In this document: in pieces, positions 9,898 through 30,620 of the stretch | Numbering within the stretch: the stretch's first letter is position 1 | Layout: the number at the start of each line of letters is the position of its first letter | From: Bellilinea caldifistulae | GTDB lineage: Bacteria; Chloroflexota; Anaerolineae; Anaerolineales; Anaerolineaceae | DNA length: 32,000 nucleotides | Direction of reading: 5' to 3' | NCBI RefSeq assembly: GCF_001306055.1 | Contig: NZ_LGHJ01000004.1 | Location: 1 to 32,000 of the forward strand | Notes under the pieces: generated by a model | What the model was told of the DNA's origin: nothing | Database searches by the model: none | Seen by the model: only the letters and a program-made list of their open reading frames with translations | Made by a program: the position numbers and the translations under genes

Positions 9898-9917
9898 TCT
9901 GCTCCGTTTTGGGTGTA

Positions 9918-12014: not shown

Positions 12015-12030
12015 TTCGGCATCTTTATAA

Positions 12031-12307
12031 AAGCGATGATGGAAACGAGTAGGTTTGAACGCAGCCACAGCGAGTCCGGGTGGGTGTGAGCCGGGCGCAA
12101 AGCGACAAATCGAAAATCCTTCCGGAGCTGCAAACTGAACGCAGGGTTGCCTGTCAGTAGGGGCGCCGGTTTCGCCAGCCGTTAGATAAGGCGCGAATAT
12201 TTCCTGAAAATGGCGTATTCGGCTGAGTGCCTGCTGGATCAGCAGGAAACAGGGTGGTACCGCGAGAAAACCCTCTCGTCCCTGTGTGGGCAGAGGGTTT
12301 ATGTCTT
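12031..12307 (+). promoter_or_regulatory. T-box riboswitch leader (tRNA-Ile sensing) controlling ileS
   Basis: The canonical T-box sequence AACAGGGTGGTACCGCGAG lies at 12248-12266. The Stem III hairpin CCTGCTG-gat-CAGCAGG (12230-12246) lies just upstream. The Stem I base carries GA/K-turn-like GATGATGG and S-turn GAGTAG (12034-12053). The candidate specifier is AUC at 12109-12111 followed by a purine. The terminator helix is AAACCCTCT (12269-12277) / AGAGGGTTT (12292-12300), followed by ATGTCTT. It lies directly upstream of ileS. Confidence 0.85.
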
Positions 12308-12333
12308 AAATTCAAGTAATTAAAGGAGTGAAC

Positions 12334-15300
12334 ATGTTTCGACCGGTTTCTCCAAAACTCAATATTGTGTTAATGGAAGAGGGTGTGCTCCGATTCTGGA
12401 AAAAGCATCAAATTTTCCAGAAAACTATGGAGCAGCGGGAAGGTGGCCCGGAATACGTTTTTTATGAAGGTCCTCCCACAGCAAATGGTAAACCGGGTGT
12501 GCATCATGTGCTGGCACGCGCCTTCAAGGACGTATTTCCCCGCTACAAGACCATGCAGGGTTATCATGTCATCCGGCGCGGTGGTTGGGATACCCACGGA
12601 TTGCCGGTTGAGATCGAGGTTGAGAAAAAACTCGGTTTTACCAATAAACAACAAATTGAGGATTTTGGAATTGCCCGGTTCAATGAACTTTGCCGTGAAT
12701 CGGCCTTTTCCTACATTCAGGAATGGGAAAAGTTGACCGACCGGATCGCTTATTGGGTGGATTTGGATACGGCTTATATAACCTATACCAACGATTACAT
12801 CGAGTCGGTTTGGTGGATCTTGAAGAATTTCTGGGACAAAGGATTGTTGTATCAGGGTTTCAAAGTTGTCCCGTACTGCCCGCGGTGTGGTACGCCGCTT
12901 TCCGACCATGAGGTGTCGCTGGGTTACGATGAAGCAACCGATCCCTCGGTCTATGTGCGGATGCCGCTGGTTGATGAACCGGATACCGCCTTACTGGTGT
13001 GGACGACGACTCCGTGGACATTGCCGGCAAATGTGGCGGTGGCTGCTCATCCGGAAGAAACATACGTGGTGGTGGAACGGGAAATGGAAGAAGGCGGCAG
13101 CGAAAAATTAATCCTCGCTGAAGCCCTACTTGAAAAGGTCTTCAACAACCAGCCGTTCACGGTTGTAAGGAAGATGAAGGGTAAAAGCCTGAAAGGCAAG
13201 CGCTATCAACCCTTATTTACCTTTGTTCCGCCCGACAAGCCTGCTCATTATGTAGTGATGGGCGATTTTGTGACTACCGAGGATGGTACAGGCCTGGTTC
13301 ACATGGCGCCAGCTTTCGGTGCCGAAGATATGAGCGCAGCGCTGGAGTATGATTTGCCGATCTTGATGACGGTGGCGCCCAATGGCACATTTATCTCCGA
13401 TGTGCGTCCCTGGGCAGGCATGTTCGTCAAAGATGCTGACCCATTGATCACCGAAGATTTGCGACAACGCGGTTTACTTTTCCGTTCGGGAACGTACACC
13501 CACACCTATCCGTTCTGCTGGCGCTGCGATACCCCTTTGCTGTATTATGCCCGCCCAACCTGGTATATTCGAACCAGTCAGTTCAAGGAGCGGATGGTCG
13601 AGCTGAACGAACAAATCAACTGGTATCCGGCTCACATTAAGACCGGAAGGTTTGGAAACTGGCTGGCAAACAACATTGACTGGGCCTTGGGCCGTGAGCG
13701 GTATTGGGGAACCCCCTTGCCGGTGTGGGAATGTGAGCAGTGCAAACATCAGGAGTGCATCGGCTCGGTGGCTGAATTAAGCCAGAAAGCGGGGCGTGAT
13801 CTTTCCGGCCTGGACCTGCACCGTCCGCATGTGGATGAAATCATCTACTCTTGTCCGGAGTGTGGTGGAAAAATGCGCCGCATACCCGAACTGATTGATG
13901 TGTGGTTCGACTCGGGTTCAATGCCCTATGCCCAATGGCATTACCCCTTCGAAAATCAGGAAATTTTCGCCCGACAGTATCCGGCCGATTACATTTGCGA
14001 GGCCGTAGATCAGACCCGTGGGTGGTTTTATTCGCTTCATGCGATCAGTACTCTGCTCAACGATCAGGTCAGTTTCAAAAATGTGATTTGCCTTGGTCTG
14101 ATTCTAGACGGCAAAGGCGAAAAAATGTCAAAATCGCGCGGGAATGTAGCCGATCCGTGGGATGTTTTGAATAAACACGGTGCCGATGCCATGCGCTGGT
14201 ATCTTTATACCGCCAGCCCGCCCGGCCAGGAGCGGCGTTATTCATCCGAGCTGGTTTCAGAGGTGGTACGAAATTTCACACTGACCTTGTGGAACACTTA
14301 CTCTTTCTTCGTAACCTACGCAAATCTGGACGGTTGGAAACCGGATGCTTCTCATCTCCCGCAATACAGTGATTTGGACCGCTGGCTACGATCCAGCTTG
14401 CATACACTGGTGCGGGATGTTACCGAGGCCATGGAATCGTACGATGTGTTGGGAGCCACCCGTCCAATTGAAACTTTTGTGGATCAGTTATCCAACTGGT
14501 ACCTGAGGCGTTCACGGCGGCGTTTCTGGAAGAGCGAGTCGGATGAGGACAAGCGCGCAGCCTATGCAACGCTCTATGAAGCCCTGGTCACACTTTCCAA
14601 ATTACTTGCGCCGACCATGCCTTTCATTGCAGAAGAGCTTTACCAGAATCTGGTACGCAGTCTGGATGAATCTGCACCGGAATCGGTACATCTGGCGCAG
14701 TGGCCCGGCTACGATTTAGCGGTGATTGATGAACGGCTCAACCGCGAAATGGCTCTGGTGATGAAACTGGCTTCGGTTGGACATGCTGCGCGAAATAAAG
14801 CCAACCGCAAAGTGCGCCAACCCCTGGCGGAAGCGGCTTTTTCGGTTGGCACGGCCGAGGAAATGCGCGTGGTCGAAGCCTACGCGGATTTGCTGGAAGA
14901 TGAATTAAATGTCAAGAAGGTGCGTGTGCTGGATACAACCGCCGAAGCGGTTGCCTATTCGCTCAACCCCTTGCCCAAACAATTGGGTCAAAAGTACGGC
15001 AGCAAATTTCCGGCGATCCGCAAGGCATTACTGGAACTGGAACCCGAAACGGCTGCAAAACGACTGCTGGCCGGAAAGCCGCTTGAAGTGGTGCTGGAAG
15101 GGGAAACCTTTACCATTTTACCGGAAGAGGTGGAAGTGCGAGCGATGGCGCGTGAAGGCTTTGCAGTGGCCAGTGAAGGTGCCTATCTGGCGGCTTTGGT
15201 CACGGACTTGACCCCGGAACTTGTCAAAGAGGGGTTGGCACGGGAGTTTGTACGCCGGGTTCAAGATTTGCGTAAACAAGCCGATTTAGAAATTTCAGAC

Positions 15301-15486
15301 CGAATCCGGCTTTATTACTCAGCCACACCTTTGCTGGCGGAAGCCGTTAAAGACTTTGCCGGTTATATTCAAGCCGAAACGCTCTGTATTGAGATGGTTG
15401 ATTCACTGCCGGCTGAGAACCTGCCCACGACGCAGGATACCTTCGACGACCAGGAAGTGACCATTGCCCTGAAAAGGGTGGAATAA
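12334..15486 (+). CDS. ileS: isoleucine--tRNA ligase (long, type-2-like form)
   Basis: About 1050 aa. HIGH-region PPTANGKPGVHHVLARAFKD and KMSKS motif (GEKMSKSRGNV). The CP1 editing-domain segment reads WTTTPWTLPAN. Cys pairs are present at CPRCG, CEQC and CPECG. ATG 12334 follows AAAGGAG (12322-12328). The ORF-track GTG 12328 overlaps the SD. Confidence 0.97.
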   Translation: MFRPVSPKLNIVLMEEGVLRFWKKHQIFQKTMEQREGGPEYVFYEGPPTANGKPGVHHVLARAFKDVFPRYKTMQGYHVIRRGGWDTHGLPVEIEVEKKLGFTNKQQIEDFGIARFNELCRESAFSYIQEWEKLTDRIAYWVDLDTAYITYTNDYIESVWWILKNFWDKGLLYQGFKVVPYCPRCGTPLSDHEVSLGYDEATDPSVYVRMPLVDEPDTALLVWTTTPWTLPANVAVAAHPEETYVVVEREMEEGGSEKLILAEALLEKVFNNQPFTVVRKMKGKSLKGKRYQPLFTFVPPDKPAHYVVMGDFVTTEDGTGLVHMAPAFGAEDMSAALEYDLPILMTVAPNGTFISDVRPWAGMFVKDADPLITEDLRQRGLLFRSGTYTHTYPFCWRCDTPLLYYARPTWYIRTSQFKERMVELNEQINWYPAHIKTGRFGNWLANNIDWALGRERYWGTPLPVWECEQCKHQECIGSVAELSQKAGRDLSGLDLHRPHVDEIIYSCPECGGKMRRIPELIDVWFDSGSMPYAQWHYPFENQEIFARQYPADYICEAVDQTRGWFYSLHAISTLLNDQVSFKNVICLGLILDGKGEKMSKSRGNVADPWDVLNKHGADAMRWYLYTASPPGQERRYSSELVSEVVRNFTLTLWNTYSFFVTYANLDGWKPDASHLPQYSDLDRWLRSSLHTLVRDVTEAMESYDVLGATRPIETFVDQLSNWYLRRSRRRFWKSESDEDKRAAYATLYEALVTLSKLLAPTMPFIAEELYQNLVRSLDESAPESVHLAQWPGYDLAVIDERLNREMALVMKLASVGHAARNKANRKVRQPLAEAAFSVGTAEEMRVVEAYADLLEDELNVKKVRVLDTTAEAVAYSLNPLPKQLGQKYGSKFPAIRKALLELEPETAAKRLLAGKPLEVVLEGETFTILPEEVEVRAMAREGFAVASEGAYLAALVTDLTPELVKEGLAREFVRRVQDLRKQADLEISDRIRLYYSATPLLAEAVKDFAGYIQAETLCIEMVDSLPAENLPTTQDTFDDQEVTIALKRVE

Positions 15487-15507
15487 AATCCAGAATAATT
15501 CAAACAA

Positions 15508-15540
15508 ACAGGGCACCCAGATGGGTGCCCTGTTCTACAT
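15508..15540 (+). terminator. intrinsic terminator after ileS
   Basis: ACAGGGCACCC (15508-15518), AGAT loop, GGGTGCCCTGT (15523-15533): a perfect 11-bp stem. The tail TCTACATT is T-poor. Confidence 0.65.
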
Positions 15541-15555
15541 TAACGTTACAAAAAC

Positions 15556-15583
15556 TTTACAAACTTGGTCTGGTTGGTACAAT
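15556..15583 (+). promoter_or_regulatory. extended -10 promoter giving an apparently leaderless transcript
   Basis: TTTACA (15556-15561), 16-nt spacer, TGgTACAAT (15575-15583). The ATG of the next gene (15592) begins 8 nt after the -10 and no SD is present. Confidence 0.5.
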
Positions 15584-15591
15584 AGAATAGA

Positions 15592-16612
15592 ATGAAATCA
15601 AAAACCTCCGTTTCGAAATGGATTTGGGTGATTTTGCTGGCGTCAATCCCTCTGTTGGTTTGGTCGCTGGGTTCAACGCCGCTGAATGAGATTGTGCAGG
15701 TATTTTCTCGTCTCCACCTTGCTCAGGTCATGATTTTAGCAGGGGTCAACATTCTAGTTTTTCTTTTGATTGCATTGCGCTGGGAGATTATTCTGCGCGC
15801 CATGGGGATGAAAGTGCCTCTGAATAAACTGGTCAGTTACCGCTTAACCAGTTTTGGAGTGAGCTACTTTACACCCGGCCCGCAATTTGGCGGCGAACCG
15901 GCGCAGGTTGCCTTTTTGACCCGTCATCATCCTGTTCAAACCCCTGCTGCCATTTCGTCCGTCTATCTGGATAAATTGTTGGAGTTATTGGTGAATATTC
16001 TGGTCATCTTCGGGGGACTTTTCCTAACTTTAAACGCGGGCTTTGGCAGCCATATTCTCCAGCCAAAATGGCTGGGTCCTGGTTTTGCTGGTGGCTGTGG
16101 TTCCCATGATTCATCTGGTTGCCTTGAAAAGCCACTTATATCCTATCAAGTGGCTGGTAGAAAAGAGTGGAGCCCACCGTTCAAACCGGCAATGGATGCG
16201 GAAAACCAGTCAACTGCTGGTTGAGGCAGAAGGTCAAATTGCAATCTTCCTGGAAAAAAATCCAAAAAGCCTGCTCCTGGCAATTTTGGTGTCTCTGCTT
16301 TCCTGGGCGGGGATGATTTTAGAGTACTATCTGGCTGCGCAATTTCTGGCTTTGCAAATGAATGGTCAGCAAGTTGCGTTTGCGTTTGTTCTTTCGCGGC
16401 TTGCCTTTTTGGCACCCTTACCGGGTGGATTGGGGGTTTTGGAAGCCAGTCAGGTTTTCGCAATGCAATCAGTCGGAATGCCGGCAGCAGCGGGGTTGGC
16501 ACTGAGTTTATGGATGCGCGCCAGGGATGTGTCCATTGGACTGGCAGGCTTGATGCTGGGTGGCTGGTTTCTAACCCGCCCATCCCATTCAATTCAAGAG
16601 GATTTTAAGTAA
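15592..16612 (+). pseudogene. flippase-like / lysyl-PG-synthase-TM-region (UPF0104) family membrane protein, interrupted by a frameshift
   Basis: Two overlapping ORFs (15592-16224 and 16043-16612) lie in frames offset by +1. Each encodes one half of a single membrane protein of about 335 aa. The N half has LRWEIILRAMG..L....YRLTSFGVSYFTPG..GGEP. The C half has LSRLAFLAPLPGGLGVLEA. The hydrophobic reading switches frame between 16034 and about 16075. Confidence 0.6.
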
Positions 16613-16619
16613 TAAAAGA

Positions 16620-16988
16620 ATGGAGATACCCATGATGACTACTCGCTCAAAGATTGGGGTTTTGGAGGGATTAATTATTTTGCTCACCCTTGCGACCGCT
16701 GCAATTCACATTTCATTGCTTTTTCCGGATGTGGTGTTCATCTTGAATGGTTTGGGATTCCTTTCGCTGGCTGCAGCATATTTTTTACCAATACCGCTGT
16801 TTACTCAGCGAAGAAAATGGATTGCCTGGGCTTATATGGGATACACTCTGGTGACCATTCTCTTGTGGGTTGCGATTGGTGAGCGCTCAACGTTGGGGTT
16901 TGCTACGAAAATCGTTGAAATAGCCCTTTTGATCAGTTTGTGGATGGATTATCGGCGGGGTTCATTCGGTAATCGTCAATCTTCTTAA
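16620..16988 (+). CDS. small integral membrane protein (4 predicted TM), unknown function
   Basis: 122-aa ORF with four hydrophobic stretches. It lies 7 nt after the preceding gene and 17 nt before ribA. An alternative start is ATG 16632, after GGAG (16623-16626). Confidence 0.5.
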   Translation: MEIPMMTTRSKIGVLEGLIILLTLATAAIHISLLFPDVVFILNGLGFLSLAAAYFLPIPLFTQRRKWIAWAYMGYTLVTILLWVAIGERSTLGFATKIVEIALLISLWMDYRRGSFGNRQSS

Positions 16989-17005
16989 ATCATTGAGGTG
17001 TTGTA

Positions 17006-17659
17006 ATGGAAGAACCATTAATTTTGAATCAAATTGTTTGCGCGCGAGTCCCAACCGCAGTGGGAGAATTCCAGCTCTGCCTGTACACCAATAATCGGGA
17101 CGACAAGGAACATCTGGCGTTGATTCGGGGGGACGTGTTCGGTAAGGAAAACGTGCCTGTCCGGATTCATTCGGAATGTTTCACTGGTGATGTTCTGGGT
17201 TCGCGCCGGTGTGATTGTGGGGAACAATTGCACCATGCGATGGAATACATTGCCCTGGAGGATTGCGGGGTAATTGTTTATCTGCGGCAGGAAGGCCGCG
17301 GCATTGGTTTGATGGAGAAACTACGGGCTTATAATCTGCAAGATCAAGGAATGGATACGGTGGATGCAAATCTTGCTTTGGGGCATCCTGAAGATCAACG
17401 CGAATACAGTGTGGCTGCGGCCATTTTGAAGGATCTGGGGGTGCGGTCGGTGCGTCTGTTGACCAATAACCCGGACAAGATTGCCGATTTAGAGAGCCGC
17501 GGAATCCGCGTTGTTGAGCGAATACCGCTCATCCCCACCATATATCCGGATAATGCCGCCTACTTGATGACCAAAATAAAGCGGATGAATCACCTGCTGG
17601 ATGCAGAAGTACTTCAATTTGTTCACTCCGAATCGAATCGCAATGGAAATCATCCCTGA
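17006..17659 (+). CDS. ribA: GTP cyclohydrolase II (monofunctional)
   Basis: 217 aa. RIHSECFTGDVLGS.RCDCG.QL, YLRQEGRGIGLMEKLRAYNLQD.G.DTV.AN and VRLLTNNP.K...L...GI.V.ER.PL all match RibA. The active-site Tyr (RAY) is retained. Confidence 0.9.
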   Translation: MEEPLILNQIVCARVPTAVGEFQLCLYTNNRDDKEHLALIRGDVFGKENVPVRIHSECFTGDVLGSRRCDCGEQLHHAMEYIALEDCGVIVYLRQEGRGIGLMEKLRAYNLQDQGMDTVDANLALGHPEDQREYSVAAAILKDLGVRSVRLLTNNPDKIADLESRGIRVVERIPLIPTIYPDNAAYLMTKIKRMNHLLDAEVLQFVHSESNRNGNHP

Positions 17660-18371
17660 TATTGAACTTGCAGCGATTGACTGGTTGAACCAGCATAAAA
17701 AATTGGCTGAAAATCAGAAGAAGCCGCTGGTTACACTCAGCTATGCCCAAACGCTGGATGGAAGCCTGACCATTCGGCGGGGAAGACCGATTGGTTTGAG
17801 TGGGCCTCAGTCCCAACGCCTGACTCATCGTTTGCGTGCCAGCCATGATGCCATTCTGATCGGGATTGGGACGGTGCTTTCCGACGATCCCCAGTTGACT
17901 GTGCGATTGGTGAAGGGAAAAAACCCGCAGCCGATCATTCTGGACTCTCGGCTACGAATTCCCCTTGAATGTCAATTGCTGCGCCGTCAGGATTGTAAAG
18001 TCTGGGTGGCCTGTGCCGTTACGGCTGAAGAAACTCGACAACGAAGATTGCTTCAACGTGGGGTTGAATTGATCCCTTTACCGCGCCGCGGTGATCGCGG
18101 ATTGGATTTAGAAAAATTATTGCAAGAATTATGGCAGAGAGGGATTGAATCAGTGATGGTAGAGGGAGGAGCGAAGGTCTTAACTTCGTTTCTCACCGAA
18201 AGGCTGGCAGATTTAGCCGTGATCACAATTGTTCCGCGCTGGCTGGGCGGTGTGAATGTGATCAGTCATCAGCGGGCGTCGGATCAATTGCCTTCGTTGA
18301 ACCATGTCCGCTATGAAGTGTTTGGCAGGGATGTGGTGGTATTCGGTGATCTGGATTGGTCGGAGCGCTAA
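17643..18371 (+). CDS. RibD C-terminal-domain-type pyrimidine reductase (no deaminase domain)
   Basis: About 242 aa from ATG 17643, overlapping the ribA stop by 17 nt. It carries PLVTLSYAQTLDGSLT, HRLRASHDAILIGIGTVLSDDPQLTVR and MVEGGAKVLTSFL motifs of the RibD/RIB7 reductase fold. No CMP/dCMP-deaminase zinc motif is present. Confidence 0.8.
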   Translation: MEIIPDIELAAIDWLNQHKKLAENQKKPLVTLSYAQTLDGSLTIRRGRPIGLSGPQSQRLTHRLRASHDAILIGIGTVLSDDPQLTVRLVKGKNPQPIILDSRLRIPLECQLLRRQDCKVWVACAVTAEETRQRRLLQRGVELIPLPRRGDRGLDLEKLLQELWQRGIESVMVEGGAKVLTSFLTERLADLAVITIVPRWLGGVNVISHQRASDQLPSLNHVRYEVFGRDVVVFGDLDWSER

Positions 18372-19403
18372 ATGAAGCGGCAGGTTTTGGTTCACCGGTC
18401 AGTCCGGAAAGTTGAGGTTGTAGAAGAAGATTGTCCTTCTCCGGCTGAAAATGAAGTGCTGGTTCAAACCCGTTTCAGCGGAATCAGCGCCGGTACGGAA
18501 GCAATGATCTATCAGGGACTGTTTCCCGAACATCTCAGTCTGGACGAGAATCTGGCAGCTTTGAGGGGAGAATTCCAGTATCCTTTCCGATATGGGTATT
18601 GCTGTGTGGGAGAGATTATCGAATGTGGCAAAGGGATTTCTCCCGCATGGCTGGGCAGGCGGGTATTTGCATTTTATCCTCATGCCAGTCATTTCACAGT
18701 TTCATGGGATGACTTAATCCTCTTGCCGGATACCCTGCGGGATGAAGATGCGGTGTTTTTGCCAAACATGGAAACTGCGGTCAATTTTCTTCAGGATGGC
18801 AAGCCCTTGCTGGGCGAAGCCGTCCTGGTGTTTGGTTTGGGGATGGTGGGCTTGTTGACTTGTGCTTTACTGGGGCAGTTTCCGCTGGGATTTTTGGGTG
18901 GATTGGACCTGTTCCCTTACCGACGACAGATTGCCCTCAGCCTTGGCGCGGATATTGCCCTCAACCCTGTTGAATTTCCGCAAACCGGATTGCTCCGTCA
19001 GGCGCTTGAATCGGCCGGTTTACCCAACACTGGCGCAGACCTGGTTTATGAACTGAGTGGTAACCCAGAGGTGATCAATCAGGCGATTGAGGTGTGTGGA
19101 TTCAACAGCCGGATGATCATCGGTTCCTGGTACGGTAAGAAAACGGCTTCTCTGGCATTGGGTGGAGCGTTTCATCGCAACCGAATCAGCATCTCTTCCA
19201 GTCAGGTCAGCACAATTGATCCATCGCTCATCGGACGATGGGATAAACGGCGCCGTTTTGAGGTGGTATTTGAACAGCTGGAGAAAGTCAAACCCGGTAA
19301 CTGGATCAGCCATCTTTTTCCGTTGTCTGAGGCCGATCAGGTGTTTCAATGGCTGGTTGATTCGCCCGAGCAAGTATTACAAGCGGTTTTTACATATCGG
19401 TAA
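18372..19403 (+). CDS. medium-chain dehydrogenase/reductase (MDR) family oxidoreductase, zinc-ligand-less (BchC-like subgroup)
   Basis: 343 aa. It has a GroES-like N-domain with SGISAGTE in place of the GxCxSD zinc motif, and GYC in place of GHE. The Rossmann motif is VFGLGMVG. The ATG directly abuts the stop of the previous gene (TAAATG). Confidence 0.75.
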   Translation: MKRQVLVHRSVRKVEVVEEDCPSPAENEVLVQTRFSGISAGTEAMIYQGLFPEHLSLDENLAALRGEFQYPFRYGYCCVGEIIECGKGISPAWLGRRVFAFYPHASHFTVSWDDLILLPDTLRDEDAVFLPNMETAVNFLQDGKPLLGEAVLVFGLGMVGLLTCALLGQFPLGFLGGLDLFPYRRQIALSLGADIALNPVEFPQTGLLRQALESAGLPNTGADLVYELSGNPEVINQAIEVCGFNSRMIIGSWYGKKTASLALGGAFHRNRISISSSQVSTIDPSLIGRWDKRRRFEVVFEQLEKVKPGNWISHLFPLSEADQVFQWLVDSPEQVLQAVFTYR

Positions 19404-20349
19404 GGTGATCGGCGGGTTGGCGTGTGGGTAAATGGGGTGGGTGATCAGCGGAGTTCTTGATTTTTTCGATTGTTCGCTCGTAGAGCGGGCGAATCTGATC
19501 CATTAAGTGACGGGTGATTTCCTCCGGGCGGCGGTAAACAGCCAATGGACGGGTGTCAATTGGGGGAAGGAGATCAACCTGAACATCCACCGGCCACAAT
19601 GCTGGGAAAAGTTCGCGCATCAAAATTTGCAGAGTGGCTGCCAGACGGCGTTTGTCTTCTGGCCGGCGGCGGAGCAGCGTGAGAGGGTGGCGCAAAGAAG
19701 GCGCTGCAATCACACCACTGACCAGCACCGGCAGGATCGGCAAACCGGGAACGAGCCGCACAAACAAGCCGGTACTGATTGACCAATCATCCAGGGAATC
19801 GAGCGTACCCGGCAAAACTTTCGGGTCGGGTTCAATTTTTCCGCCGGGAAAGGTCAGCACAGCCCCGCCAGCCCGCAGATGAGCAGCGGCTTGACGAATC
19901 ACCTCGCCACGTTGGTGTTCTGCTTCTGGAACAAAGAATAAGTAGCGGCTGGTGGCCGGCAAAGCCCGCAAAAAGGGACGTTCGGCTGCCAGAACGCGTA
20001 AATCGGAACGCGGCAAGGCTGCAAACAGGGCGAGCGTATCTGCCATGCCGGGATGATTGGAGAGGATTAAAACTGGCCCGCTGTGGGGAAGATATTCCTG
20101 ACCGCTCACGTTCAGGGAACGGACATATTCGGGGAGCATTCTCCGTGAACCGGCATTAAGACCACCCGAAGCAACCTCGCGGTCAAATTCGAGTACATGG
20201 CGGGTAAACTTGCGGGCCGGATAGTCGAATAAACGTCGGGCAATCTGACGTGCCAGAGGTCGCTTTTCAATGCCGAAGGAAATCAACATATCCTCAATGT
20301 TGATTTCCACCAAAGTTTGTTCACTGGACTGATCATCAGCCATGATCAT
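19390..20349 (-). CDS. lysophospholipid / 1-acyl-sn-glycerol-3-phosphate acyltransferase family protein (PlsC-like)
   Basis: 319 aa. It has the HX4D block (LSNHPGMAD) and an FPGGKIEPD block resembling the FPEGTR motif. Its 3' end overlaps the convergent MDR gene by 14 nt. Confidence 0.78.
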   Translation of the reverse strand: MIMADDQSSEQTLVEINIEDMLISFGIEKRPLARQIARRLFDYPARKFTRHVLEFDREVASGGLNAGSRRMLPEYVRSLNVSGQEYLPHSGPVLILSNHPGMADTLALFAALPRSDLRVLAAERPFLRALPATSRYLFFVPEAEHQRGEVIRQAAAHLRAGGAVLTFPGGKIEPDPKVLPGTLDSLDDWSISTGLFVRLVPGLPILPVLVSGVIAAPSLRHPLTLLRRRPEDKRRLAATLQILMRELFPALWPVDVQVDLLPPIDTRPLAVYRRPEEITRHLMDQIRPLYERTIEKIKNSADHPPHLPTRQPADHLTDM

Positions 20350-20416
20350 GTTAAGATTATAGTAGATTTGCTGATTGCTTTGGGCTGAGTCATCTTTTTG
20401 TAAAAGGAGTGAAACT

Positions 20417-20794
20417 ATGTACCGGGTCGGTGTGCTGAGGGATTTTATTGCCCAGCATTATCTGATTGGCGGGGATTGGGGAGCAGAAAATCAACTTCAT
20501 TCGCATCCCTATCGCCTCGAATTGGAATTGAGCGGAAAGCAGCTCGATCAACATCAATATCTGGTGGACATCGTGGCGATTGAGCAGGCTCTCGACCGCC
20601 TGATTGCTTATTACCGCGATCATACCTTGAATGATCTGCCGGAATTTGCGGGGATCAATCCATCTCTGGAGCATTTTGCTCGCGTGTTGTGTGAATCGTT
20701 GGCTCAGCAGTTTCTGCATGGGGCGGTCGAGCGCATTTCTGTCAAATTGTGGGAAAACTCACTTGCCTGGGCAGGGTATGAGGTAAACCGCTAA
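20417..20794 (+). CDS. 6-pyruvoyl-tetrahydropterin synthase / QueD (COG0720) family protein, non-canonical (no catalytic Cys)
   Basis: 125 aa from ATG 20417, preceded by AAAGGAG (20403-20409). The zinc-ligand pattern is F.AQH(14)...LH(28)SH(30). Glu24 sits where QueD/PTPS carries the catalytic Cys. The mid-protein motif is TLNDLPEF..INPS.E. Confidence 0.75.
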   Translation: MYRVGVLRDFIAQHYLIGGDWGAENQLHSHPYRLELELSGKQLDQHQYLVDIVAIEQALDRLIAYYRDHTLNDLPEFAGINPSLEHFARVLCESLAQQFLHGAVERISVKLWENSLAWAGYEVNR

Positions 20795-21883
20795 GTGAGA
20801 GTTGGGCTGATCATTTACGGGGAGTTAAGTACCCTGTCCGGGGGGTATCTGTACGACCGTAAATTGGTGGAGTATCTGCGGAGTCAGGGAGATGAGGTGG
20901 AGATCATCTCTCTGCCCTGGCGGGATTACCTGCGACATTATCAGGACAATTTCAACCCCGCCTTCCGAGAACGTCTGCGACAATTGCGGGTGGATGTGCT
21001 GCTGCAGGATGAACTCAATCATCCTTCTCTTTTTCTTCTAAACGTAAATTTGAAAAAGACGGTTCGTTACCCGCTGGTGAGCATTGTCCATCACTTGCGC
21101 TGTAATGAACAACACCCCTCTTTATTGCGGTGGTGGTATCGGCAGGTTGAAAGAATTTATCTGAATTCTGTGGATGGTTTTATTTGCAATAGCCGGACAA
21201 CCCTTGAAACGGTGGAAGGGCTCATCAAAAATCCAAAACCTGCTGTGGTTGCAACTCCCGGCGGCGATGCTTTGCCTTTAAAAACCGTGCCCCATTCCAT
21301 TCCGCATAACCCAAATGCGGTGGTGCAATTTTTGTTTGTTGGGAACTGGATCCCCCGGAAGGGCCTGCATATCCTGTTAGAGGCATTACAACCCCTGAGC
21401 TCGCAATCATGGCGGTTATCGTTGGTGGGCAGAACGAACTTGATGCCATCCTATGAGCGGAAGATTCGCCATCGAATTGCCGCAAGCGGCTTGAGCGAGA
21501 AAGTGCACATTCATGGAGCAGTCTTGAATGAGGATCTGGTTCGGTTATGGCAATCCGCCGACGTGCTGGTAGTCCCATCTCAGTATGAGGGGTTCGGAAT
21601 TGTCTATCTGGAAGCGATGCGCTTTGGGGTGATCCCAATTGGCGGGAAAGACGGGGCAGCCGGGGAAATCATCCAATCGGGGATCAATGGTTTTCTTGTT
21701 CGGCCCGATTCTCCAGCAGAGTTGAGTAATCTTTTGGCGACCTTAATCGCCGATGCGAGTCTGCGGAATGCTATTAAACAAGCCGCCCGCCAGCGGTATG
21801 AGCAATTCCCCGCCTGGCAGCAGAGCATGGCAGCGGTACGCCGGTTTTTGATCGAGAATTTTTTGGGTAAAACATGGAGTTAG
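20795..21883 (+). CDS. GT4-family (GT-B, group 1) glycosyltransferase
   Basis: 362 aa. It has an E-x7-E region (PSQYEGFGIVYLEAMRFGVIPIG) and a typical GT4 C-terminal domain. The GTG start immediately follows the PTPS-like stop. Confidence 0.85.
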   Translation: MRVGLIIYGELSTLSGGYLYDRKLVEYLRSQGDEVEIISLPWRDYLRHYQDNFNPAFRERLRQLRVDVLLQDELNHPSLFLLNVNLKKTVRYPLVSIVHHLRCNEQHPSLLRWWYRQVERIYLNSVDGFICNSRTTLETVEGLIKNPKPAVVATPGGDALPLKTVPHSIPHNPNAVVQFLFVGNWIPRKGLHILLEALQPLSSQSWRLSLVGRTNLMPSYERKIRHRIAASGLSEKVHIHGAVLNEDLVRLWQSADVLVVPSQYEGFGIVYLEAMRFGVIPIGGKDGAAGEIIQSGINGFLVRPDSPAELSNLLATLIADASLRNAIKQAARQRYEQFPAWQQSMAAVRRFLIENFLGKTWS

Positions 21884-21886
21884 AAA

Positions 21887-22801
21887 ATGGAATGGTCGTT
21901 TGTCCGATATTTAGCCGCTAAGAAGTCAGTGGATGATCGGGCGCTCAATCGGCAGGTCTGGGAGTCGCTGAGACGGGAAATCGAGCATAAGGCCGACTCG
22001 CAGCCGCTTAGAGTGCTTGAAGTGGGCATGGGCATCGGCACGATGTTTCAACGGATGCTGGAATGGGGATTAGTAGAACAGGCGGAGTATATTGGCATTG
22101 ATGCTGAAAGTGAAAATATTGCCGTTGCCAATCGCATTATTCCGTCATGGGCAAAGGAGCAAGGCTGGAATGTGCAAGGTTTGGATTTTCAACAATCTGC
22201 AAAACCCAGACACGATGGGGTGGCTTATGGCTTTTTGAAGGCTGATTTGTTCGATTTTTTGCAACAGCCTCGCTGGCAGAATTATTTTGATCTGGTGATT
22301 GCGAATGCTGTGCTGGATGTGGTGGACGTTCAGGCTGTTTTGCCAATGATCAACAACAGCCTCAAACAGGGTGGAATGGGCTACTTTTCGATCAACTTCG
22401 ATGGGATGACGGCTTTTGAGCCGTTGATTCATGCTGCCCTGGATGAGCAAATCATTCGTGTGTACCATCAAAGCATGGACGAGCGGCGCATCAACGGTAA
22501 GCCTTCAGGTGGCAGTCGGACGGGACGGCTTCTTTTTTCGGTGTCAGGTCAGGCAGGTTTTGACATTTTGGATGCCGGATCATCGGATTGGGTGGTCTTT
22601 GCGCGCGGTGGTCAATATCCGGCTGATGAGGCTTATTTTTTGCATTTCATTCTGCATTTCTTTGAGGAAACCATTCCGCGCTACCCGCAAATTGACCCAG
22701 GCGATTTTCAAGAGTGGTTGAGGATTCGCCATGCCCAAATACAGAGGGGAGAACTGGTTTTTTTGACCCATCAAATGGATTTCCTGGTACAAAAACGATG
22801 A
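21887..22801 (+). CDS. class I SAM-dependent methyltransferase
   Basis: 304 aa. Motif I is VLEVGMGIGTMF, with an acidic post-I residue (IGIDAE) and a motif II-like DLVIANAVLD. It starts 3 nt after the GT4 gene. Confidence 0.8.
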   Translation: MEWSFVRYLAAKKSVDDRALNRQVWESLRREIEHKADSQPLRVLEVGMGIGTMFQRMLEWGLVEQAEYIGIDAESENIAVANRIIPSWAKEQGWNVQGLDFQQSAKPRHDGVAYGFLKADLFDFLQQPRWQNYFDLVIANAVLDVVDVQAVLPMINNSLKQGGMGYFSINFDGMTAFEPLIHAALDEQIIRVYHQSMDERRINGKPSGGSRTGRLLFSVSGQAGFDILDAGSSDWVVFARGGQYPADEAYFLHFILHFFEETIPRYPQIDPGDFQEWLRIRHAQIQRGELVFLTHQMDFLVQKR

Positions 22802-23256
22802 AGCTCGATCTATTTCCTTCCACAGGGGGAAGTTATATTTTGGTGCTGCGGCTGACCAATGCTGTGGAAATTTTGGTTGGTAAGTCAGGACGAATTCCAT
22901 TTCCGGCTGGTGTTTATTTTTACTGCGGTTCTGCGTTGGGCAGCGGCGGTTTAAGAGGGCGGTTGAAGCATCATTTCAAACCTCGTACTTCTCCACACTG
23001 GCATATTGATTACCTGCGTCCCCACAGTGAGATTGTCGAGGTGGTCTTCTCACAGGGCGATGAGCGGTGGGAGTGCTGGTGGACGCAATTTTTGTTGAGG
23101 CAACCTACTGCTTTTATACCGGCAGGCGGTTTTGGGGCTACGGATTGTCGGAATGACTGCCCGGCTCACCTGATTGGTTTTTCGGAAACTCAAATTCCGA
23201 AAATTTTAAGAAATTTCACCCTTGCGTGGAATTGTCAACGCCTACCCATGGAATAA
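22798..23256 (+). CDS. DUF123 / GIY-YIG nuclease superfamily protein
   Basis: 152 aa from ATG 22798 (ATGA overlap with the methyltransferase stop). GVYFYCGSALG..GLRGRLKHH......PHWHIDYL matches the DUF123 signature as I remember it. The longer ORF-track start (22714) lies inside the methyltransferase gene. Confidence 0.65.
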   Translation: MKLDLFPSTGGSYILVLRLTNAVEILVGKSGRIPFPAGVYFYCGSALGSGGLRGRLKHHFKPRTSPHWHIDYLRPHSEIVEVVFSQGDERWECWWTQFLLRQPTAFIPAGGFGATDCRNDCPAHLIGFSETQIPKILRNFTLAWNCQRLPME

Positions 23257-23278
23257 AAATTGTGGTATAAGAAAGATA

Positions 23279-23456
23279 ACCCTGCTGTGTTCGTGATGCA
23301 GCACGACCGGTTTTGAGCCAACACCAATTAAGAGGGTTCCAATATCACTTGAGTGACGCGATAGACTTCGGTCAAGGCGGATCTCGGTGGAGGATCCCAT
23401 ACCTGCGAATGCAGGTTCAAAACTACGCAGCACACGGCACGGCGGGGGGTTTTTTT
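23279..23456 (+). ncRNA. candidate structured small RNA of about 175 nt with 6S-RNA-like architecture
   Basis: An own extended -10 (TGgTATAAG, 23263-23271) precedes it. The 5' end (23280-23299) pairs with the 3' end (23427-23447) over about 19 bp including G-U pairs. A second helix is 23310-23316 / 23417-23423. A 17-nt single strand (23317-23333) lies opposite a small hairpin (23401-23416). A long terminal stem-loop (23334-23398) is capped by C(UUCG)G at 23366-23371. It ends in T7 (23450-23456). No convincing ORF is present. Confidence 0.5.
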
Positions 23457-25867: not shown

Positions 25868-28030
25868 TTAATATCTGCCACGCGGCTGGGATTCGAAAAC
25901 AGCCGTCAGTTCTTCCTCACTGGCGGGTGTTACCCGCACGACGGCGGCTTTGTATTCCGGAATCTTAGCCTGCGGGTCAAGTGCGTCGGTTGTCAGCAGG
26001 TTGGCAGCCGCTTCGCGGAAGTGAAAAGGAATAAAAACTACCCCGATGTTTGTTTTGGTGGTCACTTTTGCGCGTAAAACGATTGAACCGCGCCGAGAGG
26101 TAACCCGCACCGGGCTGCCATCGTGAATTCCTAAACGGGCGGCGTCCGCCGGGTGAATGTCCATCAGGGCTTCGGGAAAGAGGTCATCCATCCATGAATG
26201 CCGGGTGAGGGTTCCGCCGTGCCAGTGTTCCAGCACTCGCCCGGTACTCAGTATCAGCGGATATTCTTCATCCGGCATTTCGGCGTTTGGTATGTATTCC
26301 AGGGGGTGGAATTTGGCTCTGCCGCGTGGAAAACGCTCGCCATAAAGGTAGGGGGTACCGGGGTGATCCGGGGTTGGAACCGGGGTTTGCAAACCGACTT
26401 TTTCGATGCGATCATACCGAATGCCAGCATAATCCGGGACATAGCGCCCCATCTCTTCAAGGATTTCAGCAGGATGGTGATAGTCCCAATAGGCCGAATT
26501 GGGGCGGTTCAAGCGGCGTTCAACTCGTTTGGCGAGATCACAGATGATCTCCCAATCCGGGCGGGATTGACCGCGTGGGGGAATGACCTGTCGAACGCGT
26601 TGAACCCGCCGGTCGGTGTTGGTAAAGGTGCCTTCTTTCTCTGCCCAGGAGGCAGCCGGCAGGAAAACATCCGCAAACGCACCGGATTCGTTGATGAACA
26701 GATCCTGGGCAACTAAAAATTCCAGTTCCTGCATCTTCTTGCGGGTGTGGTTGAGGTTTGGCTCGGACATCATTGGGTTTTCACCCATGATGTAGAGGGC
26801 TCGCACGCCACCAGGATGAACGGCTGCCAGGATCTCGGTGGTGGTCAGTCCTCGCTGCCGGTTCAGCCCTCCTGGTTCAATGTGCCAGGCTTCTTCCCAG
26901 CGGCGGGCATTTTCTTCATTGTCCACAGCCTGATAACCGGGGTAGTGCCATGGCATTGCACCTGAGTCGGACGCTCCCTGGACGTTGTTTTGACCGCGTA
27001 AAGGATTCAAGCCGGTGCCCTTGCGACCGACATGTCCGGTCAACAAAGCCAGGTTGATCAGGCTTAAAGCGTTGGCTGTCCCATGAGTGGATTCAGGAAT
27101 TCCCAGCGCCCAAAAAATAGCCCCGTTGTGGGCGGTTGCATACATGCGGGCGGCTTCGATAATCAACCCGCGGTCAACCCCTGAGATCTGCTCAGCGAAT
27201 TCAGGGGTGAACTTTTCCATGGAGGTTGCAAAGGCCTCAAAATTCTCAGTGCGTTCCTCGATGAACTGGCGGTTATAAAGGTTTTCTTTGAAGATGACAT
27301 GTGCCATTGCCGAAAAGACCGGCACATCACTGCCAGGACGGATGGGCAAGTACAGGGTGGCGTAATTGACCATTTCGATGCGGCGCGGGTCAACCACAAT
27401 CAATTTTGCGCCGTGCTTTTGGACGGCGGCTTTCATTTGCAGGGCAATAATCGGATGATTTTCGGTTGGGTTGGAGCCGGTTAAGATGAACACATCGCAA
27501 TCGCTGACCTCGGCAGCCGTGTTGCTCATGGCTGCAGATCCAATGGCCATTTGCAGGGCAACTACACTGGCGGCATGGCATAAGCGGGTACAGTGATCTA
27601 CATTATTGGTACGAAAAACAGCGCGGAAAAATTTTTGGAGAAGGTAGTTGTCCTCGTTGGTGGCTTTGGCGCAGCAGTAAACCGCCATGGCTTTTGAGCC
27701 ATCGCGCTGGTAAATTTCCACCAGCCGGTCGGCGGTGTAGTCGAGAGCTTCATCCCAACTGACTTCGCGCCATGCCGAACGATCAAACGCTTGGGTGCGC
27801 TGACCGGGTGTTTGAGGCTGTTTGCGGATAAGAGGAACAGTAACACGCTCTTTGTTGTAAATAAAGTCGTAACCGAAACGCCCTTTAACGCATAAATTGC
27901 CGTGATTGACGACGGAATCGAAGGGAGAGGTTACCTTGTAAATGAATTCATCTCGAACATGCAATTCCAGGTTGCAGCCCACGCCGCAGTAAGGACAGGT
28001 GGTGGGAACAACTTTTTCGGCATTCAACAT
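25868..28030 (-). CDS. fdhA: formate dehydrogenase catalytic subunit (Mo/W-bisPGD, Cys-type)
   Basis: 720 aa. The N-terminal 4Fe-4S motif is TTCPYCGVGCNLELHV. The active-site segment is NNVDHCTRLC(151)HAASV, matching the position of ..CARVUHGPS.. in FdhF. Molybdopterin oxidoreductase and C-terminal MopB_CT-like domains are present. AGGAGG SD lies at 28039-28044 on the - strand. Confidence 0.9.
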   Translation of the reverse strand: MLNAEKVVPTTCPYCGVGCNLELHVRDEFIYKVTSPFDSVVNHGNLCVKGRFGYDFIYNKERVTVPLIRKQPQTPGQRTQAFDRSAWREVSWDEALDYTADRLVEIYQRDGSKAMAVYCCAKATNEDNYLLQKFFRAVFRTNNVDHCTRLCHAASVVALQMAIGSAAMSNTAAEVSDCDVFILTGSNPTENHPIIALQMKAAVQKHGAKLIVVDPRRIEMVNYATLYLPIRPGSDVPVFSAMAHVIFKENLYNRQFIEERTENFEAFATSMEKFTPEFAEQISGVDRGLIIEAARMYATAHNGAIFWALGIPESTHGTANALSLINLALLTGHVGRKGTGLNPLRGQNNVQGASDSGAMPWHYPGYQAVDNEENARRWEEAWHIEPGGLNRQRGLTTTEILAAVHPGGVRALYIMGENPMMSEPNLNHTRKKMQELEFLVAQDLFINESGAFADVFLPAASWAEKEGTFTNTDRRVQRVRQVIPPRGQSRPDWEIICDLAKRVERRLNRPNSAYWDYHHPAEILEEMGRYVPDYAGIRYDRIEKVGLQTPVPTPDHPGTPYLYGERFPRGRAKFHPLEYIPNAEMPDEEYPLILSTGRVLEHWHGGTLTRHSWMDDLFPEALMDIHPADAARLGIHDGSPVRVTSRRGSIVLRAKVTTKTNIGVVFIPFHFREAAANLLTTDALDPQAKIPEYKAAVVRVTPASEEELTAVFESQPRGRY

Positions 28031-28049
28031 GATATTATCCTCCTCTGTA

Positions 28050-28775
28050 TTATGAGGGGTTAGCGGAAATTTCTTCGCGCCGTTTACGGCGTTGACGCTG
28101 GCTGCGTGTCAGACTCATGATCTCGTCTGGGCTGTAGCCCATTTCAAGCAACCATTGGCGCTTGGGCTTGAGCGCTCCGGTCGGACAAACCCCAACGCAC
28201 TGTCCGCAAAAAACGCAGGTGGATTCGGGCATGGGAATTTCGTAAAAGGTACTGATTTGGGTTTCATAACCGCGCCCGGAAAAGTTAATGGCGTAGGTAT
28301 ACTGGGCATCTTCGGCGCATACCTGTACGCAACGCCAGCACAGAATACATTTGGCATAATCGCGGATGTACATGGGGTTGTCATCAATCACCGTTGGGCG
28401 GCGCGCTTCGGCATCCGGAAAGCGGTATAGATCAGAGGAATATTCCTGAATCATGGCTTGAATCTCCGGTGATTCGCTCAGATCCACGCTGGAAGCCAGC
28501 ATTTCCAGGATGGTGCGCCGCGAGCGAATGACCCGTTCGCTGCGAGTGTGAATGACCATACCATCTCGCACCTGCACCACACAGGCTGGCTGCAAGGTGC
28601 GCGTTCCTTCTACTTCAACCCCACAAATGCGGCACAGACCGTTGGCAGTGCAGTGATCATGGTAACAAATTGTCGGAATCTGGATGCCTGCCTGCTGCGC
28701 AGCCTGTAAAATGGTGCTGCCTGCGGGTACCTCAACGGTTTGCTGGTCAATGGTTAAGCGGATGGTTTCGCTCAT
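28050..28775 (-). CDS. Fe-S subunit (2Fe-2S ferredoxin plus 4Fe-4S clusters), equivalent to the N-terminal NuoG-like domain of fused FDH alpha subunits
   Basis: 241 aa. The 2Fe-2S pattern is [19 protein letters not shown]....C. Two CxxCxxCxxxCP-type motifs are present ([23 protein letters not shown]). It lies 19 nt upstream of the catalytic subunit. Confidence 0.85.
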
Positions 28776-28796
28776 TGGATTACCCTTCCGTATTAT

Positions 28797-30515: not shown

Positions 30516-30620
30516 GGGTTCTCCTTTTCGACCAGCGAATTTTGGAAAGAGCAGCAGAGGGGAGCAATGGTTGGGGGTGAAGTCGGATAATTCCTACTAA
30601 ACCGGTTATAATTATTATAC

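Follow-up and report, generated by a model that had tools for sequence, protein, structure and literature searches.

A 32,000-nucleotide stretch of the genome of Bellilinea caldifistulae (Anaerolineae, Chloroflexota; source assembly GCA_001050215.2), called the window below, contains a tightly packed gene cluster that poses a question of function: what is made where a GTP cyclohydrolase II (GCH II), a RibD_C-type reductase, a zinc-less medium-chain dehydrogenase/reductase (MDR), a T-fold protein related to 6-pyruvoyltetrahydropterin synthase (PTPS) and QueD, a family 4 glycosyltransferase (GT4) and a methyltransferase (MT) are encoded side by side? A first-pass annotation, made from the sequence alone, had proposed a glycosylated and methylated compound derived from GTP, with a hint of a membrane or exported fate. 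From a comparison of the cluster with its relatives, we consider it fairly probable that these genes specify a dedicated, conserved pathway that leaves the riboflavin route at its first intermediates, does not make riboflavin, and leads to a glycosylated, methylated and probably membrane-linked pterin or pyrimidine.

The genes of the cluster are conserved together, as the first-pass annotation had suggested checking. In a scan of one genome per species, at least 571 genomes carried a relative of the PTPS-like protein, and the best 80 loci, nearly all from Anaerolineae, were compared. A gene was scored as retained when tblastn with the window protein found it within 6 kb of the PTPS-like gene. 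Among the 52 loci with 5 kb or more on either side (full-flank loci), retention was 98% for GT4, 75% for MT, 71% for MDR, which lies directly 5' of PTPS, 69% for RibD_C, 65% for GCH II, 50% for a small protein with four transmembrane segments (4-TM protein) and 40% for a flippase-like membrane protein of the LPG_synthase_TM family, as against 0-4% for the genes that flank the cluster in the window (IleRS, FHA and AI-2E). Adjacency of PTPS and GT4 is the tightest link of all. Counted over all 80 loci, the neighbors of PTPS include GT4 in 78, MDR in 58, MT in 52, RibD_C in 50 and GCH II in 44. About one quarter to one third of the Anaerolineae loci have PTPS-GT4-(MT) with no GCH II, RibD_C or MDR within 6 kb, and the cluster is therefore modular, with separable modules for supply (GCH II-RibD_C-MDR), tailoring (PTPS-GT4-MT) and the membrane. 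A single locus among the best 80 carries a label other than Chloroflexota, namely L055 (contig JBGSLA010000270.1, labeled Desulfobaccales), which has the arrangement MDR-x-PTPS-GT4 and may represent horizontal transfer or a mis-binned contig.

Two genes that had been counted in the cluster are less firmly attached to it. The PlsC-family acyltransferase gene is present, as annotated, but is an accessory found in 25% of full-flank loci. Its orthologues occupy three different positions across Anaerolineae loci. MDR abuts PTPS in most relatives, and the acyltransferase gene comes between the two in none but the Bellilinea lineage and a small number of related loci of Anaerolineae. The DUF123 gene is indeed adjacent, and its start overlaps the MT stop codon by 4 nucleotides (ATGA), but its conserved linkage is weak (17% of full-flank loci), and neither the archaeal nor the Streptomyces versions of the cluster contain it.

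The linkage extends to a second domain of life. Relatives of the PTPS-like protein number in the thousands at 55-90% identity, and an exhaustive profile search returned 648 representative clusters at E <= 1e-10, many of which looked haloarchaeal. A search from one such representative found members in Natrialba, Natronorubrum, Halorussus, Halalkalicoccus, Halorubrum luteum and others, where the proteins bear generic names such as 'PtpS family protein'. Clusters of this kind occur, for example, in Natrialba, Natronobeatus, Halorubrum luteum, Halorussus, Halalkalicoccus and Haloarchaeobius. Of six haloarchaeal loci that we read, four share the order MDR-PTPS-GT4-MT with the window. The encoded proteins are true orthologues of those in the window, with identities of 44-46% (MDR), 46-47% (PTPS), 35-40% (GT4) and 29-35% (MT), and the E-x3-H-x-H signature of the PTPS-like protein is kept. 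The haloarchaeal clusters differ in lacking GCH II, RibD_C, the acyltransferase and LPG_synthase_TM, and in having accessory proteins of their own. Three of the six combine (membrane protein)-DUF7475-CDP-OH_P_transf with MDR, PTPS, GT4 and MT, where the membrane protein is about 200 amino acids long, DUF7475 is 27% identical to a Chloroflexi 4-TM orthologue and recognizably related to it, and CDP-OH_P_transf, a CDP-alcohol phosphatidyltransferase, is 33% identical to its Chloroflexi counterpart. The other three have a 'DGNHR' protein beside MDR-PTPS-GT4-MT, with MDR and MT missing from the Halalkalicoccus jeotgali locus (L087). In two of these, from Haloarchaeobius and Halalkalicoccus, a GTP cyclohydrolase III (GCH III) gene lies just upstream of the module in operon position.

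The 'DGNHR' protein is ~200 amino acids in length, contains an 'ADGNHRA' motif and has no match in Pfam or NCBIfam. Its three representatives (L086:6170-6769, L087:6131-6754 and L090:4229-4924) are mutually 44-50% identical and accompany the variants that lack DUF7475 and CDP-OH_P_transf. In Halalkalicoccus jeotgali, a QueC gene and a radical-SAM (QueE-like) gene directly follow GT4 on the opposite strand (L087:9433-10889, -), which may reflect coincidence or shared GTP-derived metabolism.

A more distant version of the cluster occurs in Streptomyces coelicolor around SCO6650, which is recorded as an 'uncharacterized protein' (PDB 3D7J) and is the nearest protein of solved structure to the PTPS-like family (hmmsearch E 5.5e-15). 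The gene order at this locus is CDP-OH_P_transf, zinc-less MDR, PTPS homologue, GT4, MT, LPG_synthase_TM, creatininase-family hydrolase and GCH II, the last being the paralogue SCO6655. At the level of families, gene content is shared with this type of cluster. The haloarchaeal proteins are much closer to those of the window than the Streptomyces ones are. SCO6650 and SCO6655 were reportedly solved or studied in about 2008, SCO6650 is said to have neither zinc binding nor PTPS activity, and the surrounding cluster is said to have been noticed before without an assigned function. In the Streptomyces GCH II (L084:14919-15608), the Tyr of the window enzyme is replaced by Met (KLRAMALQ), and we take this Met type to be the formylaminopyrimidine-forming one. 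The adjacent creatininase-family protein (L084:14119-14883) scores 142 bits against MftE and 38 bits against ArfB, both under the cut-offs. The creatininase family includes the archaeal deformylase ArfB, and as a hypothesis the Streptomyces protein might likewise be a deformylase.

Three non-orthologous GTP cyclohydrolases are thus found beside one PTPS-GT4 module: Tyr-type GCH II, Met-type GCH II with a creatininase-family hydrolase, and GCH III. All three routes lead to 2,5-diamino-6-ribosylaminopyrimidinone 5'-phosphate. This convergence, together with proteins in which GCH II and RibD_C are fused, supports the GTP-derived origin that had been proposed for the product. The fused polypeptides, of ~438 amino acids, occur in nine loci (L014, L025, L034, L035, L037, L045, L066, L068 and L070; for example L034:6988-8304) and provide a Rosetta-stone link between the first two enzymes; GCH II with RibD_C is the only fused form in the relatives.

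The distribution of the reductase has a ready explanation. Bacterial RibD deaminates first, and 2,5-diamino-6-ribitylaminopyrimidinone phosphate (DARIPP) is a normal intermediate in archaea, not in bacteria; bacterial clusters would carry RibD_C because DARIPP must there be made separately. Archaea reduce before they deaminate in the riboflavin route (PMC5397151), so that DARIPP is already available and archaeal clusters would need no reductase. We infer from this pattern of gene content that DARIPP is the entry substrate, in which case the ribA and reductase genes are not mere neighbors of unrelated GT and MT genes. Such a chance neighborhood, which the first-pass annotation had named as grounds for giving up its reading, is not borne out, since the linkage crosses domains and involves varied GTP cyclohydrolases. 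In the archaeal and fungal order of the riboflavin pathway (ArfA/B or RibA, then ArfC/Rib7), GCH II and RibD_C would give the same intermediate, but here their genes are tied to MDR, the PTPS-like gene, GT4 and MT.

A canonical bacterial rib operon was considered for these genes and set aside. No ribB or ribBA, ribH, ribE or deaminase gene, and no bifunctional RibD, is among the scanned open reading frames (ORFs) of the window, and the sole Rfam matches in it are a T-box and a 6S RNA, with no FMN riboswitch. Nor is the cluster a canonical pterin operon: GTP cyclohydrolase I is absent from the window and from the related loci examined, and the catalytic Cys of PTPS is replaced. On both counts the first-pass annotation had come to the same view.

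There are precedents for diverting the GCH II product from riboflavin. In Chlamydia, RibA and an isomerase (TrpF) yield dihydroneopterin monophosphate (PMC4161248), so that closure to a pterin is chemically feasible, and in faba bean GCH II feeds the synthesis of the pyrimidine glucoside vicine (bioRxiv 10.1101/2020.02.26.966523). The Chlamydia route and the vicine/convicine route resemble the cluster in that a GCH II product is led to a pterin or a pyrimidine glycoside. They differ in using TrpF isomerase or plant enzymes, with no MDR, T-fold enzyme or CDP-alcohol transferase chemistry.

The window GCH II matches PF00925 with 238 bits and TIGR00505 with 257.7 bits (cut-off 205.85), and has both the zinc site C-x10-C-x-C (SEC-x10-C-x-C) and the motif KLRAYNLQ. 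The Tyr of this motif, presumably at the position of E. coli Tyr105, is kept in 33 of 34 Chloroflexi cluster orthologues. The RibD_C protein of 256 amino acids matches PF01872 with 148 bits, and its nearest structures are stand-alone reductases, 7LRH and the M. jannaschii enzyme 2AZN. A check of domains and motifs found no deaminase domain or motif in it. The descriptions 'monofunctional GCH II' and 'reductase-only' are therefore upheld by the domain searches.

The MDR scores under the Pfam cut-offs for ADH_N and ADH_zinc_N, and its top NCBIfam match is BchC. Its closest matches of known structure are dehydrogenases for polyols, threonine and butanediol. It does not conform to the zinc-dependent medium-chain alcohol dehydrogenases, which are marked by catalytic zinc ligands (Cys, His, Cys/Glu) and a structural Zn Cys4 lobe. 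In an alignment to 6IE0 and 4ILK, Ser/Ala and Tyr take the ligand positions of the catalytic Cys and His, and these replacements lie within SxxSxGTE and YGY motifs that are invariant in the family, as expected from its earlier description as zinc-less. The family also has a GxGxxG motif, after which beta-2 ends in Asp or Glu, and this acidic residue suggests that the cofactor is NAD.

The PTPS-like protein is predicted to be a T-fold protein with three His zinc ligands. Its AlphaFold2 model (pLDDT 93.6) has SCO6650 (3D7J) as its top PDB match, with a Foldseek TM of 0.85, followed by QueD and PTPS with TM of 0.7-0.8; taken over QueD, PTPS and SCO6650 the range is 0.76-0.85. In common with PTPS and QueD (COG0720) it has this fold, the ligands H14, H28 and H30, which vary little or not at all in the family, the NPS/TxE and LN motifs, and the C-terminal Glu (Glu113) that anchors the 2-amino-4-oxo-pyrimidine ring. 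In contrast, the catalytic Cys (C-x3-HGH or C-x5-HGH) and the Asp-His relay are not found. Glu24 occupies the position of the QueD Cys, in agreement with the earlier 'Cys-less' call, and is present in 102 of 112 aligned sequences. The family keeps Asp68, but the His that follows it is variable, so the relay of true PTPS is not kept. When 110 representatives were compared, one from each of as many clusters at 50% identity, H14, E24, H28, H30, D51, N72, P82, E85 and E113 were conserved.

Published motifs of this superfamily are C-x3-HGH for QueD, C-x5-HGH for PTPS-II and E-x2-HGH for PTPS-III (PMC5041015). As aligned here, the E-x3-H-x-H signature is distinct from the published PTPS-I, -II and -III motifs (PMC5041015). 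The FolB-replacing PTPS-III was tried as an assignment and rejected: in an alignment to PH0634 its Glu stands in a different register, the Glu of the window protein being one residue further from the His pair, and the window has no fol genes. The usual neighbors of PTPS and QueD genes are folE, queC, queE and fol genes, in place of which we find GCH II or GCH III, MDR and GT4. A review mentions a PTPS-IV subfamily of COG0720 that unpublished work links to F420, and another subfamily of unknown function (PMC5041015). A search for fusions among long PTPS-like representatives found only PTPS domains. Two long proteins, P0387 (2105 amino acids) and P0375 (855 amino acids), contain 17 and 3 PTPS-like stretches, and Pfam shows only PTPS repeats in P0375.

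Among the tailoring enzymes, the nearest structures to the GT4 are MshA, GlgA and PimB', whose acceptors are polyol phosphates or phosphatidylinositol (MshA, PimB') and glycogen. For the MT, comparison with solved structures by single sequence and by a 25-sequence profile matched only the SAM-binding motif, from which no substrate can be guessed. Specific NCBIfam models are lacking for the PTPS-like protein, the MDR, the GT4 and the MT, as they are for the CDP-alcohol transferases and the accessory proteins of haloarchaea. A match of PF20706 ('GT4-conflict') raised the idea of an anti-phage defense function, which we do not adopt: PADLOC was negative save for a generic methyltransferase-domain match.

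Genes with a likely role at the membrane recur with the module. Unbiased clustering of all ORFs in the 80 loci recovered a second methyltransferase in a few loci and CDP-OH_P_transf (PF01066) in 22. In nearly all of these 22 Chloroflexi loci the transferase gene adjoins the flippase-like gene, and it stays so when the pair is relocated or inverted. Its motif, D-x2-DG-x2-AR...G-x3-D-x3-D, is intact in the L066 sequence. These transferases match no curated equivalog, the best score being 37.6 bits to PgsA, with a cut-off of 109. They are also found in the Streptomyces locus and in the three haloarchaeal loci described above. At least one lipid or membrane gene is carried by 29 of the 34 full-flank loci with GCH II. 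The acyltransferase has the motif HPGMAD (H-x4-D), with the acyltransferase domains of OlsF and Aas as its best NCBIfam matches. This family was absent from the haloarchaeal versions read and was seen only in bacterial ones, which fits the difference between ester and ether lipids. Because CDP-OH_P_transf, DUF7475, LPG_synthase_TM and the PlsC acyltransferase recur with the module, our best guess is a lipid-anchored or membrane-assembled product. The earlier hint of a membrane or exported fate is strengthened by the presence of CDP-OH_P_transf and DUF7475 in the conserved set of relatives, and is qualified by the window itself, which has no CDP-alcohol transferase gene and a broken flippase-like gene.

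Operons for phosphatidylinositol mannosides (PI-mannosides) contain a CDP-alcohol phosphatidyltransferase, an acyltransferase and the GT4 PimA. The present clusters likewise combine CDP-OH_P_transf, an acyltransferase and a GT4, with PimB' and MshA among the nearest GT4 structures. They differ in that the genes that would supply the head group are GTP-derived rather than inositol-derived, and in that the acyltransferase is of the PlsC type.

A reaction sequence can be proposed that uses each of these enzymes. GCH II, for which family membership is strong, would open GTP to 2,5-diamino-6-ribosylamino-4(3H)-pyrimidinone 5'-phosphate, and RibD_C, judged by its family, would reduce this to the ribityl form, DARIPP. 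The natural assignment for the zinc-less MDR would be NAD-dependent oxidation of a secondary hydroxyl on the ribityl chain. If this is the 2'-OH, reduction by RibD_C and oxidation by MDR would amount to an Amadori rearrangement, achieving by redox chemistry what GTP cyclohydrolase I does in its Amadori step, and the product could close to a 7,8-dihydropterin of the neopterin phosphate type. The fungal pair of xylose reductase and xylitol dehydrogenase offers an analogy. The PTPS-like enzyme, with Zn-His3, Glu24 as base and Glu113 as anchor, would then act on the side chain. The most economical proposal is that, in the manner of PTPS, it would abstract a proton from an oxygenated side chain bound to zinc and bring about either loss of phosphate or a rearrangement. 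GT4 would add a sugar and MT would methylate, as their families and near-invariant linkage suggest. In the least certain step, CDP-OH_P_transf, DUF7475, LPG_synthase_TM and, in bacteria, the PlsC acyltransferase would place the product on a membrane lipid and possibly move it outward.

A bolder form of this proposal, which we hold only tentatively, is that Chloroflexota and haloarchaea, and distantly Streptomyces, share a pathway to a membrane lipid or membrane-bound cofactor of a class not known before, with a GTP-derived, glycosylated and methylated pterin or aminopyrimidine head group. Its ring would be formed without GTP cyclohydrolase I, through a redox Amadori rearrangement (RibD_C at C1', MDR at C2') followed by a Glu-type T-fold enzyme, and a novel subfamily of CDP-alcohol phosphatidyltransferases would attach it using CDP-diacylglycerol in bacteria and CDP-archaeol in archaea.

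Several observations weigh against a dedicated pathway with a membrane-linked product. All catalytic steps after GCH II and RibD_C are inferred, and sequence does not tell whether MDR would oxidize at 2', 3' or 4'. The tailoring genes stand apart from the supply genes in the sizeable share of Anaerolineae loci noted above. The Streptomyces cluster is distant, at 29-32% identity to the window proteins, and is without RibD_C, and SCO6650 lacks the equivalents of Glu24 and His30. Regarding the membrane, just 31% of full-flank loci have CDP-OH_P_transf, which is missing from the window and three of the six haloarchaeal loci, and many loci have no lipid gene at all. Furthermore, CDP-alcohol transferases can join two soluble alcohols, so that their presence does not prove a lipid linkage.

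These last points would be accommodated by a soluble product. PTPS, an oxidoreductase, GT4 and MT together mirror the known gene logic of pterin glycosides, and it is conceivable, if unlikely, that the cluster makes one of the biopterin glucoside, tepidopterin, cyanopterin or solfapterin type. GCH II, RibD_C and MDR would then replace GTP cyclohydrolase I, the PTPS-like protein would act as a PTPS, GT4 would be the pterin glycosyltransferase, MT would act on the sugar or the pterin, and the membrane genes would serve export only or be unrelated. The conserved T-fold and pterin-anchoring Glu113 are in keeping with this, as is the precedent of dihydroneopterin phosphate derived from RibA (PMC4161248). 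However, neither the catalytic Cys nor the Asp-His pair of true PTPS is conserved, CDP-OH_P_transf and DUF7475 repeatedly accompany the module in two domains of life and Streptomyces, and the acyltransferase is present in bacteria only. Known pterin-glycoside pathways, supplied by GTP cyclohydrolase I, pair an active PTPS and a reductase with a glycosyltransferase of the BGluT/PgtA type. The window GT4 is generic, with MshA and GlgA as best PDB matches, and may or may not be related to that type.

It is more doubtful that two unrelated systems happen to adjoin, such that GCH II and RibD_C, possibly joined by the PTPS-like protein in the role of the missing pyrimidine deaminase, form an archaeal-order route to riboflavin or to an F420 precursor beside an envelope glycolipid operon. 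GCH II and RibD_C are bona fide riboflavin-type enzymes, and Zn-His3 with a Glu is formally compatible with hydrolytic chemistry. F420 is made in Chloroflexota, Actinomycetota and haloarchaea, the groups that hold the PTPS-like family, and the combination of GT4, CDP-alcohol transferase and acyltransferase resembles the PI-mannoside operon. The reviewed tie between PTPS-IV and F420 (PMC5041015) points the same way. Against such a division, the tightest link in the cluster joins PTPS to GT4, MDR-PTPS-GT4-MT form one unit in haloarchaea, whose riboflavin genes already exist elsewhere, and ribB, ribH, ribE and an FMN riboswitch are missing from the window. Also against it, in PTPS and QueD structures the T-fold zinc is located at the side-chain end and not at C2 of the pyrimidine. 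Finally, that the gene order reflects only phylogenetic inertia or chance with no common pathway, as might be supposed from the predominance of one class, Anaerolineae, among the 80 loci and the recurrence of the downstream housekeeping genes lspA, rluD, threonine aldolase and PNP in 12-15 of them, is a reading to which we give almost no weight, since it is already largely refuted by synteny across domains (the same families linked in Halobacteria and Streptomyces, with differing gene orders and non-orthologous GTP cyclohydrolases), by the GCH II::RibD_C fusion proteins, and by the lack of conservation of the window's own flanking genes.

The features of the cluster are listed in Table 1. The first-pass annotation had placed all ORFs correctly and with the right domains, and its account of tight packing and overlaps agrees with recomputed spacings: gaps of 7 and 17 nucleotides, an overlap and 0 nucleotides in the first set of genes, then 0 nucleotides, 3 nucleotides and an ATGA overlap. 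Promoter-like sites such as the one in the table are no more numerous in this region than in shuffled sequence. The MT sequence is identical on a 3.7-Mb scaffold, in a related metagenome-assembled genome (MAG) and in a Logan assembly.

Table 1. Coordinates of the cluster genes and of the elements immediately 5' to them, numbered from the first nucleotide of the window.
Feature	Position	Strand	Remarks
IleRS hairpin	15506-15535		5' of promoter-like site
Promoter-like site TTTACA-16-TACAAT with TG extension	15556..15583	+	Consensus match only; directly 5' of first cluster gene
LPG_synthase_TM (flippase-like) membrane protein gene	15592..16612	+	PF03706; split by frameshift: 15592-16224 + 16043-16612
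Small 4-TM protein, distant DUF7475 member	16632..16988	+	Pfam DUF7475 match E 7.6e-5, under cut-off
Monofunctional GCH II, Tyr type	17006..17659	+	PF00925, TIGR00505
Reductase-only RibD_C protein (pyrimidine nucleotide reductase type)	17601..18371	+	PF01872; without deaminase domain
Zinc-less MDR dehydrogenase, BchC-like / polyol-dehydrogenase-like	18372..19403	+	Predicted NAD-dependent
PlsC-family acyltransferase, H-x4-D motif	19390..20349	-	PF01553; divergent from PTPS; accessory
PTPS-like T-fold protein, 125 aa	20417..20794	+	E-x3-H-x-H signature
GT4 glycosyltransferase	20795..21883	+	PF00534, PF13692
Class I SAM-dependent methyltransferase (MT)	21887..22801	+	Family without solved relative
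DUF123 protein	22798..23256	+	PF01986; pathway membership doubtful

The frameshift that the first-pass annotation noticed in the flippase-like gene can be traced to a single nucleotide. The gene is intact, encoding 327 amino acids, in a 99%-identical MAG (locus L002; GCA_026003595.1), relative to which the window has one extra A in the A-run at 16058-16061. The two halves match positions 4-143 and 148-295 of PF03706. Because the isolate assembly and an independent Logan assembly (run DRR198553) both show the extra A while the MAG gene is intact, the frameshift is probably real, marking either a strain-specific pseudogene or a slippery site rather than an assembly error.

The remaining genes of the window are of the housekeeping kind: rnpA, yidC, jag, a GT2 gene, a pyrimidine nucleoside phosphorylase gene, the isoleucyl-tRNA synthetase (IleRS) gene and a formate-dehydrogenase-like set. 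The last of these, at 25868-31972, comprises a molybdopterin oxidoreductase, a 2Fe-2S/4Fe-4S subunit, a NuoE/F-like subunit, a MobA-like gene and FdhD. Between the pyrimidine nucleoside phosphorylase gene and the IleRS T-box lies an ORF of 685 amino acids with a TTG start and no Pfam match (9909-11966, +). The T-box leader (RF00230, 113.8 bits) is at 12027-12286 (+), directly 5' of the IleRS gene (12328-15486). A 6S/SsrS RNA (RF00013; 57.2 bits, cut-off 46.4) is at 23276-23452 (+); it starts 20 nucleotides 3' of the DUF123 stop codon and marks the 3' boundary of the cluster.

A literature search on the gene combination, on SCO6648 to SCO6655 and on the haloarchaeal clusters found no published description. 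The cluster appears to belong among those for GTP-derived pteridines or pyrimidines, with a substantial chance that its product class is entirely new.

If the proposed pathway is correct, a large group of orphan T-fold proteins within COG0720, represented in the at least 571 species genomes and 648 representative clusters found here, would gain a function, and the result would bear on Streptomyces SCO6650 and SCO6655. It would also establish a new branch point at the very start of the riboflavin pathway, which would explain extra GCH II and deaminase-less RibD_C proteins in bacteria. The comparison of bacteria with archaea gives MDR-PTPS-GT4-MT as the minimal set, with DUF7475 and the CDP-alcohol transferase as optional additions. 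Should the product prove to be a lipid, a GTP-derived head group would be added to those known in bacterial and archaeal membrane lipids.

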